A stretch of DNA of 64,000 bases from Octopus vulgaris (GCA_951406725.2 OX597815.1:177134001-177198000), one strand, 5' to 3'; positions 2,508 through 63,102 are shown, numbered from the stretch's first letter. A program made the numbers and translations. Notes: generated by a model not told the origin, from the sequence alone.

Positions 2508-2640
2508 GCAGCGTGGAAGGTGTTTATAAGCCATTTAAGAAACACACAAAAACCGTTAGATTCACTTCAACATTTAAATTTAATTTGTCAAAATATTTCC
2601 GTCGCTTTGGGACCGCGACCTGTTCACTGACAAAACTCCG
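2508..2640 (-). mobile_element. Short PLE-terminal-like repeat with HHR-like fold (2584-2634), inserted in (TAT)n
   Basis: Homologous to both arms of 13490-13780; minus strand TTTGTCA-GTGAACA-G-GTCGC..GCGAC-GGAA-ATAT-TT-TGACAAA. Confidence 0.6.
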
Positions 2641-3148
2641 TAATTATTATTATTATTATTATTATTATTGTTGTGTCCTTATTCATTGTTACCATCATTG
2701 TTATTGTCGTTACTAATGCTATCATTATTCCTCTAGAGTAGCTGTGGCCACCGCTGACGGCCATTGTTATTGTTGTTGTTTTTGTCCTTGTGGTTACGTT
2801 CTGTGGCTGTGGCAACAGTTTAGTTGCCATCATTTTCTTTGTTTTTCATTGTTGTTCATGGGAAATGGCAAGGTTAAGCTTTCTGGCTTCGCTCCTACCA
2901 TTGTGTAGCAGTATTAAATGTTACTAGCTACACTTCATGCCTTGTCTTTCAGGGATAGGAGGAAGCGACACAATCGGGCGGAAACACAGGTATCACTAGT
3001 CTATAAATATATTCAATAAATGCTGACAAGCAACCAACACAGGAGTAGTTATACCATGTGGTCAGCAAAGGTCAAAATATGTTTACTACCGCTATGATTG
3101 GTGAGAGATGGAATACTTCGAAGAGAACTAATATACCCCGTCCTCTTT

Positions 3149-3192
<44 letters not shown>

Positions 3193-3570
3193 CGTTGACT
3201 TTTTAGTGGGGAAATATTAAATGAATTTTCGTAATTGTGGAGTTTGTTAATTAATACGTTTATCTTCTGCGTTCGCTGACAGTTCTGGAGTTTCTGGACT
3301 GTTTTCAGAGTTTGTAATTTTAGAGGGGCTTCCATTTATCATTGATATGAAAGACGGATATTTGCGTGTTGGAAAAGCTAGAAGGAAGTAAGAAACTATG
3401 TAATCACAGAGAGGCGCTTATTTTGAAGTTGCTTTTGAAGGTGCGTTTGTGTTCGTTCTGCTGCTAGAACAAAAAATAATCAAACATTCACAGATTGTAG
3501 CTATTCAACTCCCTCTCTCTACCAGATCGAGTACATTTTTTTAATTGAACTTTCTATCACAGGACAGTGC

Positions 3571-3610
<40 letters not shown>

Positions 3611-3620
<10 letters not shown>

Positions 3621-3746
3621 TATAGAAGGAGCTTCTACAGGACTAGAACTGTTTCATTCAAGAGAAATCATCAGGAAGCTTCCTGATGATTTCTCTTGAA
3701 TGAAACAGTTCTAGTCCTGTAGAAGCTCCTTCTATATAATAAATTA
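3611..3746. repeat. Perfect 136-bp palindrome centred on AAGCTT, next to (TA)n
   Basis: Arms are exact reverse complements about 3678/3679. Confidence 0.95.
3677..3727 (+). ncRNA. Type I hammerhead ribozyme (mirror copy on the minus strand at 3630-3680)
   Basis: AGCTTC-CTGATGA-tTTCtcttGAAt-GAAA-CAGttctagtcCTG-TA-GAAGCT: 6-bp stem I, intact core, stem III, GUA triplet. Confidence 0.75.
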
Positions 3747-4791
3747 ATTTTACTCTGCTATGTATTGAGTACCTTATTTACTGTGGTTAACCCCGAATCA
3801 ACCCGGGACCTACATATATATATATATATATATAAACATACATACATACCTACAGATAAGTAGATGGTTGATAGAAACTCGTAATCATGATTTATAGTAT
3901 TCTGTTTACATACAGTAAATATACATCAATGCCACAGGTTTGCTTGGAAGATGTAATGAATATGTACAATGAAAAGGACGCTGAAACACGTGTACACACA
4001 CACACGCCCATCATTGTTACATTGATCGGTCTATTAGTTCACTGAATGAATGAGGGCGGTTGGAATAAATGTGCTTGTAAGTAAAATAAATGCAAAGTTA
4101 TTGATATTTGTGAAGTGTAGCGTTGTGTTTTAGGCAAATATATGGCATTAATTAATAGTTGATTATATCTCATATGTAGTGTGGTAAGGTTAATTATTGA
4201 AGTGCCATTAATCAGAATTCTGGAGCATGCCACTTCATTCACACACACACACACACACACACTCGTACATATATATATAATGTATGTATTTATGAATGTA
4301 TGTATGTGTGTATGCAAGCTGTTGTGTAATACATAATTTCAAATGTAATTGATATAGAGAAACATCGGATAATTTAAGGGAATATTTAATGAGGTGTGGT
4401 AGCGGGATGCACTTAGATAATGAGTGTATTATAAATGCGTTTATAATTTGCGTTTATATGAATATTTGATGCATTCAAGTTGGTTATCTGTACATTTACG
4501 TGTAGATGTTACTTGATGTGAATTGTGTAAAAAAAAATGTGAATATATCGAATTTGGCATTTAAATGATTAATGTAAAATATAAGCTGGATACTTGTGAA
4601 TTCAAAGTTTAATTAAATGCGAGTTGGATATATGTAACATACGTGTTAGATTAAAAGGGAAATATAGGTAATACAAAGACAAGTAACATATAAAATGTGA
4701 TTAGAGGAGATTATCTCTTTCAGTGAATAAATTCATCATCAAGAATTATTCAGATTTGAAAGAAGATTGGCAGACTTTACATCATCAATCT

Positions 4792-4880
4792 TTTACTTGT
4801 TTCATTCATTAGAGAGCGGCCATGCTGAAGTATTGCCTTGGTTAATCTTACACGAACGAATCGACCCCAGTACTTATTTA
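4792..4880 (-). mobile_element. SINE family B 3' fragment
   Basis: ttacttgtttca...gcggccatgctg...atcgaccccagtactt; the gcggccatgctg motif recurs at ~22310-22350 and antisense at ~41950-41990. Confidence 0.6.
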
Positions 4881-4902
4881 AAAAGAAATTAATCTTCGGA
4901 CA

Positions 4903-5063
4903 TATTCTTTTCTACTCTAGGCACAAGGCCCAAATTTTTTGGAAAGGGTCCTAGTTGACTAGATCGACCCCCAGTACGCAGCTGCGAACTGGGGTTGATC
5001 TAATCGACTGCTCCCCCTACTTCTAAAATTTCAGGCCTTGTGCCTATAGTAGAAACGATTATT
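4903..5063. mobile_element. Two SINE family A 3' halves in inverted orientation
   Basis: tctactctaggcacaaggcc...cccagtacgca|gctgcgaactgggg...ggccttgtgcctatagtaga; centre ~4982. Confidence 0.75.
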
Positions 5064-5064
5064 A

Positions 5065-60226: not shown

Positions 60227-60441
60227 AAGGCAGTAGAGCTGGCAGAACCATTATAACGCCGGACAAAATGCTTTACGGCATTTCGTTCGGATTTACTTAC
60301 AAACTTTTAATTCTATCGAAATTCGCTTTGCCTTTCATCCATTCGGGGGTCAATATAATAGGAGCTAGTTGAGCATTGGGCTCAATATCAATCACTGCCC
60401 CCTCCCTCACAGTTGCTGGCCCTGTGCCAAAATTTATTAGA
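60227..60441 (+). mobile_element. SINE family A, old
   Basis: gagctggcagaacc...ctttgcctttcatccattcggggg...ggccctgtgcc. Confidence 0.8.
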
Positions 60442-60729
60442 AAAGATGGCTTGCTCTATTCTGTGCATGGGTAAGAGGGAAAAATAATAAAAAAACCCAC
60501 TTACCAAATGATAATTACTGGAAAATATGATATGAACAAAACCGTCTCTTTATCTGCACCCACAAGCATCCTGTCTGTATTACCATTTTTATAAAGAAAA
60601 TCTGTACCTCTCATTCACTAACTCGCTTGCAAAACGAAATATGATTCTATCAAAGCCATGCACATACAAATGGAAGGCCTCCCTGTATTGTATACACGCA
60701 CACACACACGTATGAGCCATACTTATAGC

Positions 60730-61200
60730 TATCGACTTAAAGGTATGGGCTGCATTCAATTCTTATGGGTCCGAACTTTCTAAATCATCCTGGTAACGCC
60801 ATCCAATATCTTTTCACTCTTGTCAGCATTGTTTTTGTGTTCCCAGTTGGCACCAAATAAGCAAGCATGTCCTGTCACATTGTTTCCAATAAATTAAGAC
60901 TGTGGCCACCTTATGTAGCTCTGAAACTTTTCACTGGTCTTTGCTTAAGGATTTCGAAGTTTTCATGTTAGCTGCATTGGACACTTTCAGAGTGCATCTG
61001 TGAAGCCACAACTTTGCAGCATTGATAATCTTTCGCCTATTTATGATGAAGGCTTGTAATGAGTTGTATGAATGCTCTTAGGACTCATTTCTCTCTCACG
61101 CTGATTGCAATTAATTTCACAAGATATGCCTGATCTCACCATGCACGGTTTTCGCTTTTCTTGTTATCGAATTAAGGTTTCCAAATATTTACATTTCATA
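60730..61200 (-). mobile_element. Highly decayed Tc1-like transposase C-terminus
   Basis: HSLNLLETM* (~PDLNPIExxW), then RYWMALP; upstream SNAANMKTSK (~DNAxxH). Confidence 0.35.
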
Positions 61201-61499
61201 AGGCAAAACAATATTGACTTGCTTCAAAGTTCTTTAATTCACATGTTATAAAATGGCGTTATTTTCTTAAAGATTCTGACTGTTTTTGCCTTTTTTTTCT
61301 TTTCGATGCTCTTAAAATCTAGGCCCATCAAGTCATTTCCATCATTAACAGTACTAAGGGGTGTAGGTATCTCTCTGCTATATCTATGAGGATAGAGTTT
61401 CCTGCGTAATGAATATGTAAATATCTGGCCCTTTCTACATTTATACCTAGCAGATGAAACAGAAATCGAATAAATATTGGAGGAGATGGACTCTTTAGG

Positions 61500-62385
61500 T
61501 TAGCATGCCACGCATCTCTGCTTTGATGGTGTACCGCAATTTCTGCAGCAGAGAAGCATAATACGACCCCGTTAATTTTTGTGCCCTTTGCCAGAAATTA
61601 TATCATCACTACTCCGTGCTGGTTACAAAGGACTGAGCATCACCTTGCCTGATCAGGGAGAGGCACAAGCTTAATTTGGGGGTGATGAGTTGTTATGCTT
61701 CCATTGCTTCGAGTGGACTTTAGTTTCAGGATAATAGTGATGGACCCATGTTTCATCTTGTGTGATACGTCTGCCGAAAAAGTCCTCCTCATTTCTTGGA
61801 ATATTGCCAAAAGAGCCTGGGAGCAATTGACTTATTCCTGTTTCTGAAAAGGTGTGAGCATCCGGGGAATCCATCGTGCAGACAATCTTCATATGCGCAA
61901 TTGGTCGTGAATGATTTTTTCCACGGACCCTACACTTATCTTCACTTGATGGGATAGTTGCCGAATAGTTATGCGGCGATCCTCCAAAATGGCGGCTTCC
62001 ACTTTATGGATGGTGTCGTTATCAATGGCGGAACGTGGTCGCCCAGGAATATTAGCAGTTTTCACCGGTGTCCAATTACATTTGATCAGACGATTCCAGT
62101 GCATGGCTACGGCGCATGATGGTGCATCATCACCATAAACTTCATTCATCTCATCGAAAGTTTCATTTGGTGTACGATCTTTCAAGTATAACAACCTGAT
62201 CACTGATCTGCATTCAACTGCCTCCATTATAACACCTTAGCACACGTCAGGCAAACGAATAATAGAGAAAAGCTGCAATTTACAATGTGATATGTAGACA
62301 CATGTGCGATTATACATGTACAAGTTCCTTTTCCTGCAATAAACAAACGCGAGTCAGAAGAAATTTTTAATGAACACTCTAGTGG
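61500..62385 (-). mobile_element. mariner-family transposon, 3'-truncated transposase pseudogene
   Basis: ORFs 61889-62227 and 61671-61892: HTH with GRPR, EDRRIT, ARWIPRMLT, ITQDETWVHHYYPETK..SKQW; TIR-like end at (TA)n. Confidence 0.93.
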
Positions 62386-62416
<31 letters not shown>

Positions 62417-62742
62417 GTGTGCGTATGTGCGTTGCGCACGCACGTGTGTGCGTGTGAAAAGCGAGGGAACAAGCAATAAGAAAAGCTTTATGCTTATTAT
62501 ATTTAATTTTTTTTCTGCTCTGCCCGCCGAAATTTTCTTCGTATGTTGTAAAGTGTATACACACACACATATATATATATTCCAATATGTTTGTGTATAG
62601 GTGAATGCGTATGTATGTCTATTTGTATATGTGCATGGTTATTAATTTTATGTATGCATAAATTTATGCGTCTCTGTATATCTGTGTGTGAGTTTACATA
62701 TACGTGGATAAGGTGTGCGTATATGTGTGTATGTTTATACGA

Positions 62743-62786
<44 letters not shown>

Positions 62787-62883
62787 GGGGAGCATAACTC
62801 CAAACTTACAGGGAAAACTTCAATTTAGTATTAAATCAAAATTCACAATATAAATATATAATATATAAATTAGAGAATTTATA

Positions 62884-62926
<43 letters not shown>

Positions 62927-62939
62927 CATACACATACAC

Positions 62940-63102
62940 ACTATTTTCTCTCTCTGTGCTTATTTCTGTGTTCCTTTCTGTTGAAGAGCGTAGGCTCGAA
63001 ACGTAAAATACTTTCTCACTCTCCCGGGCGTCAAATTAATACATTTGTTTGTTGTTTACACACCCGTCTTCGTCTTATTTTGTTTTTCTGTAAATTCCAA
63101 CT
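62940..63102 (+). mobile_element. Short PLE-terminal-like repeat with HHR-like motif at 62974-63008
   Basis: cTTT-CTGTTGA-A-GAGCgtagGCTC-GAAA-CG-TA-AAA; flanked by TA/CA repeats. Confidence 0.65.

Follow-up and report, generated by a model that had tools for sequence, protein, structure and literature searches.

Predicted Minimal Hammerhead Ribozymes in the 3′ Terminal Repeats of Penelope-Like Elements of Octopus vulgaris

RESULTS

Hammerhead motifs are frequent in the octopus genome and form sequence families

The hammerhead-like motifs scattered through a 64,000-nucleotide stretch of Octopus vulgaris DNA (GCA_951406725.2, OX597815.1:177134001-177198000; the window) very probably belong to the 3′ terminal repeats of protein-coding Penelope-like elements (PLEs) and are predicted to fold as minimal type I hammerheads, and most of the short copies are likely to be 5′-truncated insertions of such elements in AT microsatellites. 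A first-pass annotation, made from the sequence alone, had listed about 15 motifs in short, noncoding repeats and assigned them to nonautonomous PLE derivatives. The observation itself is partly confirmed. All 15 hammerhead-shaped places were found at or adjoining their listed positions, and the type I layout was recovered in homologous copies for all 12 sequence groups. The description as short noncoding repeats does not suit 48091, which is the end of a broken PLE (46455-48188). The motifs are real as predicted hammerhead folds with putative self-cleavage.

A descriptor for minimal type I hammerheads was run on a 1-Mb sample drawn systematically from the genome as 100 stretches of 10 kb. It returned 23 matches per Mb, compared with 1 in reversed and 0.7 in shuffled sequence, so that motif density exceeded the shuffled controls proposed as a check; with looser stems, the same sample gave 33 matches versus 2 reversed and 1.0 shuffled. 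In the window, the strict setting found 0 sites and the loose setting 3 (controls, 1 reversed and 0.5 shuffled), namely, 2 of the 15 listed sites and an unlisted match at 18705 that is probably due to chance. An earlier descriptor requiring a stem III of at least 6 nt, which found 0 window sites and 0 to 2 in shuffles, was too strict and was superseded. Since several intact family forms are also missed by the descriptor, the low yield in the window does not reflect decay alone. Rfam gave 0 window matches at the gathering score; at an E value of ≤10, no hammerhead family appeared among the 150 listed of 307 matches, which were miRNA-type matches on microsatellites and hairpins.

By homology, we counted about 105 motif-bearing ends per Mb versus 1 in the control, a figure that includes single-member clusters (73 per Mb without them). 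Window matches at 46669 (coding region) and 50463 (self-complementary arm) were discarded. Family A contributes about 21 copies per Mb and family B about 4 to 6. Extrapolation from about 105 ends per Mb implies roughly 220,000 to 380,000 PLE ends genome-wide, in keeping with the large population that had been proposed. That this population is probably unannotated holds for the ribozyme but not for the PLEs, which are present in octopus genome annotations (PMC13282606, PMC8967140).

Where at least six unrelated sequence families had been claimed, we found 12 groups (10 when each of two diverged pairs is counted as one): A (sites 18984, 44989, and 62974), B (2584 and 13644), C (14236), C2 (7365), D (50434), D2 (26609), E (36208), F (3677), G (19265), H (48091), I (50663), and J (58521). 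Between 2 and 61 homologues per group were recovered from elsewhere in the genome, with only 2 for G and 3 for C2. In every group, the homologues carry stem I, core, stem II, GAAA, a short and mostly palindromic stem III, UH, and stem I′, and the majorities of all 12 groups (n = 2 for G and n = 3 for C2) have A15.1-U16.1 and H17, with stems and core arranged in type I order.

The canonical CUGANGA/GAAA core is the family majority in C2, D, D2, E, F, G, I, and J. Two families have a compensated 3-8 pair, U3-A8 in H and G3-C8 in B, where the swapped core was present in 33/44 copies (7 copies not scored). Uncompensated departures are A6U in family A (28 of 29 copies that were collected by their upstream sequence have U at position 6) and A9C in family C (13 of 15 copies); both cores are expected to cut poorly. 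Family C is a young family, its best 40 matches being 98 to 100% identical. Stem III is a perfect or G-U palindrome in A, B, C2, H, I, and J, has one unpaired central letter in D and E and a central mismatch in C, and consists of 4 bp with an 8-nt loop in F. Among matches selected for pairing, differing stem I and stem II pairs were visible across families A, A2, and K.

Window copies are stubs and mirrored insertions with variably worn cores

The motif limits given below are approximate for all sites. Family A is represented by stubs at 18976-19146 (+), which is truncated within the hammerhead, retains the 3′ half only, and ends in (TA)n; at 44883-45057 (−), with a decayed core (motif at ~44990-45030); and at 62941-63110 (+), with a hammerhead at ~62974-63008 that has the A6U core and a 4-nt palindromic stem III. 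The family B stub at 2505-2642 (−) carries a swapped G3-C8 hammerhead at ~2584-2635, in which G replaces A13. The family C stub (14176-14400, +) is flanked by (TA)n runs and contains a hammerhead with the A9C core at ~14236-14277. In the C2 stub (7358-7419, −), the core has decayed and is canonical in 2 of 3 homologues. The family D stub (50385-50512, −; core at 50439-50489) has G in place of A15.1, and its relative D2 (26585-26676, −; core at 26613-26663) has a small stem III deletion. The family G stub (19170-19361, −; core at 19267-19328) has a decayed stem III; the (TA)n at 19140-19169 is common to it and the neighboring family A stub. The family I stub (50584-50760, −; core at 50666-50736) combines a long stem II loop with an 8-nt palindromic stem III, and the family J stub (58406-58625, −; motif at 58523-58607) has a long stem II insertion and one core change. 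Two further features were absent from the first-pass list, a decayed 3′ half of an A-like hammerhead at 10622-10677 (+) and another family J copy at 41810-41946 (+), seen as a BLAST match only.

Three sites lie within long hairpins formed by mirrored insertions. The family F copy at 3611-3746 is a perfect 136-nt palindrome with cores at 3683-3711 (+) and 3646-3674 (−), each with the 4-bp stem III and 8-nt loop and a U·U at the base of stem II. The motif noted on both strands at 3677 is thus indeed on both strands but belongs to a single mirrored insertion, and its reading as two elements was rejected. The family B insertion at 13569-13720 has a decayed core, with the motif at ~13640-13687 (+) and the mirror arm at 13573-13642 (−). 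In the family E insertion at 36175-36382, the motif at 36208-36241 (−) is followed by a mirror arm at 36244-36306 (+) that runs on to ~36382. Folded as RNA, these hairpins reach −112 (3677), −94 (13644), and −102 (36208) kcal/mol.

Core letters, read by eye against the family majority, are retained in 8 of the 15 sites; the other 7 (2584, 7365, 13644, 18984, 44989, 50434, and 58521) either carry an altered core or are missing the 5′ half. Among copies recruited without the motif, the whole core is retained in 18/29 (A), 12/25 (D), and 9/27 (J), leaving 38 to 67% of copies with a damaged core across these families. In the same kind of sample, non-CpG differences affected 3.5% of core versus 8.2% of flank positions in A, 1.0% versus 8.7% in D, and 7.5% versus 16.1% in J, a contrast inflated by subfamily structure and T-rich alignment noise among copies that are not independent.

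Seven families lead into Penelope endonuclease reading frames

Linking the families to PLE open reading frames (ORFs), as had been proposed, was achieved for seven of them (A, B, C, D, H, I, and J), which account for 10 of the 15 sites. In their longer copies, a PLE GIY-YIG endonuclease ORF lies about 0.4 to 1.4 kb upstream on the same strand. Outside this link are the five sites of C2 and D2, relatives of C and D by similarity, and of E, F, and G. Of 30 family A loci collected by their upstream sequence, 8 have an endonuclease with a Neptune-type linker and CCHH upstream, and 6 of these 8 show continuous DNA homology of at least 820 nt; reverse transcriptase (RT) motifs were seen in one broken copy (L269). 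For family B, 7 of 12 fetched endonuclease-tail loci had a same-strand B segment downstream. The ORF was upstream in 6 of 25 family C loci, plus L189, and in 3/30 (D), 4/20 (I), and 5/30 (J) loci; L340 was left out of the J count, as its ORF matches the D family, and L228 and L395 were left out of the ORF-link counts, not being upstream on the same strand.

For family H, the link is provided by the window copy and 20 loci; relatives are 74 to 83% identical, and many have an inverted 3′ fragment upstream. RT motifs were read in broken H copies. The window copy is a broken, 5′-truncated PLE at 46455-48188 (+), with RT thumb and GIY-YIG remnants followed by a terminal repeat (~47855-48182) that contains the U3-A8 hammerhead (~48091-48128) and by (TA)n at the element end. 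PLEs of this kind, suggested earlier as the mobilizer, are here taken as the source, and the hammerhead at 48091 belongs to the end of this element.

Pfam GIY-YIG matches to the B, C, and D ORFs were below its cutoff (E values of 0.0003, 0.0025, and 0.014, respectively), and the family I and J ORFs had no match to that model. No PLE domain was found by Pfam in six stop-free pieces of the frames at 46303-47616; the RVT_1 match (E value of 0.0005) was rejected as PLE RT, belonging to a neighboring LINE fragment. None of the recovered copies contained an intact full-length PLE ORF. The A and H endonucleases have a CX2-5CxxC linker with CCHH, while those of D, I, and J have a CxCX5C linker without CCHH and a late CxxC. 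The source elements thus appear to be Neptune-, Nematis-, or Hydra-like PLEs, labels drawn from endonuclease motifs of broken copies and not from an RT tree; families B and C we provisionally take to be Nematis-like. The earlier assignment to PLE-type minimal type I hammerheads is upheld.

Short copies resemble truncated 3′ ends

Among copies of the ORF-linked families, 5′ ends are scattered and graded by variable truncation, 3′ ends are fixed with an optional tail, and inverted upstream copies are frequent. Family B has two 3′ end points, with an extra tail of about 55 nt in 17 of 24 copies read by eye. Because longer copies contain the ORF and 5′ ends are scattered, we interpret the short copies as truncated 3′ ends of coding elements. 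An opposite-strand family neighbor accompanied 154 of 574 fetched copies, and a same-strand neighbor within 1 kb accompanied 50 of 574, many in nested mirrors. None of the 15 window sites lies in a head-to-tail tandem. The one clean array, six family B units at L363, fits local DNA duplication, since its units contain host (TA)n and five of the six share a broken stem II. An AT-type microsatellite lay 40 to 260 nt downstream of 21/31 descriptor matches and upstream of 17/31, compared with 26.5% of random positions, which upholds the reported association with AT microsatellites.

Drawing on known PLE biology, and for the mechanism chiefly on the Poseidon_Ac (PAc) results (PMC11167929), we propose that the GIY-YIG endonuclease nicks (TA)n and that uncut RNA would be reverse transcribed from a start point about 70 to 250 nt downstream of the hammerhead. 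Synthesis would usually terminate prematurely, at times with a second, inverted piece added, which would make a stub retaining the ribozyme the commonest product. Cutting would be confined to tandem source transcripts, in which the ribozyme would act as a dimer or be helped by protein, and selection there could maintain the core; lone and mirrored stubs would not be expected to cut and would then decay.

Alternative explanations

The short copies might instead be mostly nonautonomous, retrozyme- or SINE-like PLE derivatives that are transcribed, self-cleaved, circularized, and reinserted in trans by PLE proteins. Such derivatives and retrozymes are known (PMC7229834; bioRxiv 10.64898/2026.07.22.740005; PMC8557442), the family E copies examined begin no more than about 30 nt from the core, and the L363 array is head to tail. 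However, families B and J also seemed short-ended at first and were later traced to ORFs, tandems are rare (50/574 copies with a same-strand neighbor), and L363 fits local duplication. We therefore consider this account unlikely for most copies. The retrozyme as the main class was rejected (0/15 sites tandem, seven families reaching their own PLE ORF), and the original emphasis on nonautonomous derivatives was not upheld, as those families, with 10 of the 15 sites, run into an endonuclease ORF and have scattered 5′ ends. Families E, F, and G (three sites) may be nonautonomous, and some short subfamilies could still be mobilized in trans, as an ORF in some long copies is no proof for every short copy.

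Chance look-alikes in AT-rich, palindrome-rich repeat DNA would explain why only 2 of 15 window sites pass the loose descriptor and none the strict one, and why the listed Rfam matches include no hammerhead. They would not explain 23 versus about 1 match per Mb in controls, the recovery of the motif in the majority sequence of families whose window copy is broken, the expected position behind PLE ORFs, or the conserved core; chance is refuted at the family level and is extremely improbable, group G with its two homologues being weakly supported. Host co-option of stubs as RNA-processing elements, with selection on individual genomic copies, is in our view very improbable. It would fit the very high copy number and the lower variability of core letters, but the latter is accounted for by selection on source elements, 38 to 67% of copies (7/15 in the window) have a damaged core, and lone minimal hammerheads did not cleave in vitro (PMC4209133). 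Together, these results partly support the first-pass interpretation and favor truncated 3′ ends of coding PLEs.

DISCUSSION

As a class, these hammerheads are already known: they represent the 2014 pattern (PMC4209133) in a new host, to which we add nonstandard cores (G3-C8, A6U, A9C, and U3-A8) fixed in large ORF-linked families. With some 300,000 PLE ends, the octopus load is possibly, though less likely than not, among the densest known, with such families having fixed the G3-C8, A6U, and A9C cores. Should the nonstandard cores prove able to cut, whether as dimers or aided by the PLE protein of their own element, the natural hammerhead core would be widened, and the within-genome series against canonical sister families could reveal the ribozyme's part in PLE transposition. 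For annotation, about 100 PLE stubs per Mb could easily be mistaken for unclassified SINEs. Among the recently active families in one recent annotation of octopus repeats, 893 are unclassified SINEs, and the words "ribozyme" and "hammerhead" are absent from it.

Cervera and de la Peña described minimal type I hammerheads (min-HHRs) in the pseudo-LTRs of metazoan PLEs and thousands of solo copies from truncated PLEs (PMC4209133). The octopus motifs share the type I layout, the extra nucleotide after A9, the short palindromic stem III, and the U3-A8 variant. In both cases, a genome holds many families, solo copies "probably related to truncated PLEs" predominate, and close opposite-strand pairs occur. 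The octopus load is higher, with 23 descriptor matches and about 105 ends per Mb here; Xenopus has about 9,000 and coelacanth about 4,000 hammerheads in total, counted with a different descriptor. The available text of that study makes no mention of G3-C8, A6U, or A9C cores or of the present host. The source elements resemble the Neptune, Nematis, and Hydra EN+ PLEs of Craig et al. (2021, PMC8557442) in their C-terminal GIY-YIG and linker types, (TA)n targeting, 5′ truncation, inverted upstream copy, and 3′ tail, which is about 55 nt in family B compared with 30 to 40 nt there; a 3′ tail or two end points have been described for PLEs (PMC8557442, PMC11167929).

Like non-LTR retrozymes, the octopus stubs are short noncoding units with a type I hammerhead from PLE terminal repeats (PMC7229834; bioRxiv 10.64898/2026.07.22.740005). 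Retrozymes form head-to-tail tandems with mostly canonical hammerheads and circular RNAs (Cervera and de la Peña 2020; Li et al. 2026), unlike the window sites, none of which is tandem, and the fetched copies, among which tandems are rare. In Anolis, PAc combines AT-rich cleavage, internal RT start at two sites (the tail), and insertion from uncut RNA (Frangieh et al. 2024, PMC11167929). PAc differs in belonging to another clade and in having a hammerhead that overlaps the ORF start. There is no settled role for the PLE hammerhead, which is dispensable for insertion in vitro (PMC11167929). The PAc hammerhead is protein assisted, and a C3G/G8C double change gave partial rescue. G3-C8, a laboratory mutant in PAc (PMC11167929), is the natural majority in octopus family B, and the coexistence of canonical, swapped, and uncompensated cores among sister families of a single genome offers material for direct comparison.

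Hammerhead motifs in the window and in the genome

The window is microsatellite-rich, with a GC content of 35%, and the first-pass annotation had listed about 15 hammerhead motifs in it. A hammerhead-like stretch is present at each of the 15 places and the motifs are real, but many are worn: by eye, the core letters are intact in 8 of the 15 window copies and altered in 7. At 3677, 13644 and 36208 the insertion is mirrored and its RNA folds into one long hairpin.

A first descriptor was too strict and was replaced by a second one describing the minimal type I layout, with an optional bulge after A9, R10.1-Y11.1 and a palindromic stem III, and accepting canonical, A6-variant, U3-A8, G3-C8 and A9-variant cores. 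From the assembly searched (2.80 Gb, 227 contigs), we took 100 stretches of 10 kb at round coordinates on 28 contigs. When stems of at least 4 bp were required, this 1 Mb sample contained 23 motifs, whereas reversing the sequence left 1 and shuffling its dinucleotides block by block gave 0.7. Allowing 3-bp stems raised these counts to 33, 2 and 1.0, respectively. Motif density in the genome therefore exceeds that of the controls. In the window, the same descriptor found 0 sites with stems of at least 4 bp and 3 sites with 3-bp stems, two of them among the 15, and Rfam gave no match at its gathering score. Support for the window sites therefore comes from their family copies.

Homologous copies were recruited by BLAST from all loci in hand at that stage and aligned by group (A, 61; B, 44; C, 15; C2, 3; D, 34; D2, 28, mostly common to the D set; E, 19; F, 7; G, 2; H, 23; I, 22; J, 35). 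The column majority showed the full hammerhead layout in all 12 groups, and where a window copy was broken, the family majority usually restored the expected letter. Among copies recruited without the motif, non-CpG letters departed from the column majority less frequently in the core than in the flanks, with core and flank differences of 8/228 versus 196/2388 in family A, 2/198 versus 180/2066 in family D and 18/239 versus 377/2342 in family J, statistics that are weakened by shared ancestry and T-rich alignment noise. The whole core was intact in only 18/29 A, 12/25 D and 9/27 J copies, a core count that leaves out four D and two J copies not aligning through the motif. This contrast, together with the damaged cores, fits selection on source elements followed by decay after insertion. 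Several majority cores are nonstandard: G3-C8 occurs in 33/44 B copies, U at position 6 in 28/29 A copies and A9C in 13/15 C copies.

Seven hammerhead families extend into Penelope-like endonuclease reading frames

Open reading frames (ORFs) were traced by searching the genome, family by family, with the sequence 5' of the motif. In family A (18984, 44989 and 62974), DNA shared among 30 loci recruited on upstream sequence extends upstream by graded lengths from 0 to ~1,070 nt. In eight of these loci an endonuclease with a CX4CxxC linker and CCHH is matched on the same strand, and one locus carries reverse transcriptase motifs (L269). In family C (14236), a GIY-YIG ORF ends 430 to 690 nt before the motif in 6/25 loci and in one locus of the systematic sample (L189), and the family is young, because its best 40 matches are 98 to 100% identical. 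Family B copies (2584 and 13644) mostly have their 5' ends near the motif, and longer ones enter a microsatellite-rich untranslated region. One B locus (L380) contains an endonuclease tail, which as a genome query gave at least 40 matches; all 12 fetched (ranks 2 to 13) match the family C endonuclease at ~40 to 58% identity, and 7 carry a same-strand B segment downstream of the tail. Upstream endonucleases in D (50434; 3/30 loci), I (50663; 4/20) and J (58521; 5/30) have a CxCX5C-type linker and a late CxxC without CCHH, which are described as Hydra-clade marks (PMC8557442). Family H is represented in the window by a broken Penelope-like element (PLE; 46455-48188, plus strand); its long relatives are numerous, and many have an inverted 3' fragment on their upstream side. 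Pfam GIY-YIG matched three of five ORFs tested, all below its cutoff.

A PLE origin had been proposed for these repeats, and longer copies of seven families, covering 10 of the 15 sites, bear it out with an endonuclease ORF upstream. This shows that the families of those 10 sites are the 3' ends of coding PLEs. Outside this count are 3677, 19265 and 36208, as well as 7365 and 26609, whose families are related to C and D, respectively, but have diverged from them. The suggestion that the repeats are nonautonomous derivatives mostly fails, since the families of these 10 sites run into a coding PLE ORF.

Arrangement and abundance of motif-bearing ends

All fetched loci together held 574 motif copies, some genomic places having been fetched twice. 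A family neighbor less than 1 kb away lay on the opposite strand for 154 of these copies and on the same strand for 50. A single clean array (L363:1475-2730, on C28 near 24.04 Mb) holds six head-to-tail B units 180 to 196 nt apart, with two inverted units upstream. It looks like local DNA duplication of a stub (a short 3'-end copy carrying the predicted hammerhead), because host (TA)n lies inside every unit and a shared break in stem II affects five of the six, the last being intact. By eye, 17/24 B copies have an extra 3' tail of ~55 nt.

The reported association with AT microsatellites holds, with one lying 40 to 260 nt downstream of 21/31 descriptor hits and upstream of 17/31, versus 26.5% of random positions. 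Two different PLE stubs share a microsatellite at 19140-19169 (A and G) and at 50512-50583 (D and I), which suggests repeated insertion into one tract.

By homology, the 1 Mb sample contained 105 motif-bearing ends versus 1 in the reversed control, mirrors being scored twice and the A2, K and L library being partly drawn from the sample itself; 43 of the 100 stretches had none. Extrapolation gives a bootstrap range of 221,000 to 378,000 motif-bearing ends per genome, in agreement with the large population envisaged. The window, with 19 real matches in 64 kb, has about three times the average. A2 and K are abundant canonical-core families (21 per Mb each) absent from the first-pass annotation, A2 being a sister of the A6U family A; a further family, L, occurs at 4 per Mb.

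Other repeats in the window

A perfect 192-nt inverted repeat around (TA)n (7878-8069), whose arms resemble another common short repeat, has no hammerhead core by eye. Imperfect long hairpins at 4902-5062, 19681-19836 and 42003-42122 (arms 72 to 86% identical) gave no match to the hammerhead family library; they may be MITEs, or mirrored stubs derived from elements of another kind. An abundant SINE-like family, unrelated to the hammerhead families, has at least 10 window copies (1983-2212, 5063-5450, 6040-6207, 8290-8675, 20535-20699, 25784-25951, 34941-35182, 36797-37003, 60224-60386 and 63544-63895). A broken LINE fragment (45590-46450; weak RVT_1 match at 46303-46515, E 0.0005) directly adjoins the 5'-truncated PLE at 46455. 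By eye, the broken remnants at 15552-16208 (minus), 51570-51941 (plus) and 61671-62236 (minus) resemble reverse transcriptases of the L1/Tx1 and CR1 types and a mariner transposase. Direct repeats of 400 to 950 nt, nested and imperfect (66 to 74% identity), occupy 26892-29055.

Proposed mechanism

The insertion anatomy comes from the loci described here, and the mechanism that most likely produced it is one we infer from published PLE work. The PLE endonuclease would nick AT-rich DNA, and reverse transcription would start internally on uncut RNA, at a point downstream of the hammerhead; hammerhead mutants are reported to insert normally, cutting to require protein and C3G/G8C to give partial rescue (PMC11167929). 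Synthesis that stops early, in some cases with a second piece added in inverted orientation as described at PLE insertions (PMC8557442), would leave a stub of 100 to 300 nt retaining the motif. Lone or mirrored stubs are predicted to be silent, without self-cleavage, because cleavage by minimal hammerheads is weak and confined to dimers (PMC4209133).

Comparison with known systems

By definition, retrozymes consist of tandem units (PMC7229834; bioRxiv 10.64898/2026.07.22.740005), whereas the hammerhead repeats here do not, and retrozymes were rejected as their main class. Octopus genome annotations already include PLEs (PMC13282606 and PMC8967140), with no occurrence of the word "hammerhead" in either paper, and none of the papers retrieved by a search on hammerhead, Penelope and octopus treats octopus hammerheads. 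Cervera and de la Pena (2014; PMC4209133) describe the same pattern as in the window families: genomes with thousands of minimal hammerheads each, most of them solo copies ascribed to truncated PLEs, together with pairs on opposite strands, a bulge following A9 and a U3-A8 form. The population thus follows a known pattern, and some interest remains in its density and in nonstandard cores fixed in large coding families. Known natural core forms include U3-A8, low-activity A6C and U10.1-U11.1 (PMC3088659), and the nonstandard cores may already be covered by the PLE hammerhead variants of Lunse et al. (2017). G3-C8 (C3G/G8C), a laboratory mutant in PMC11167929, is here the natural majority core of family B.
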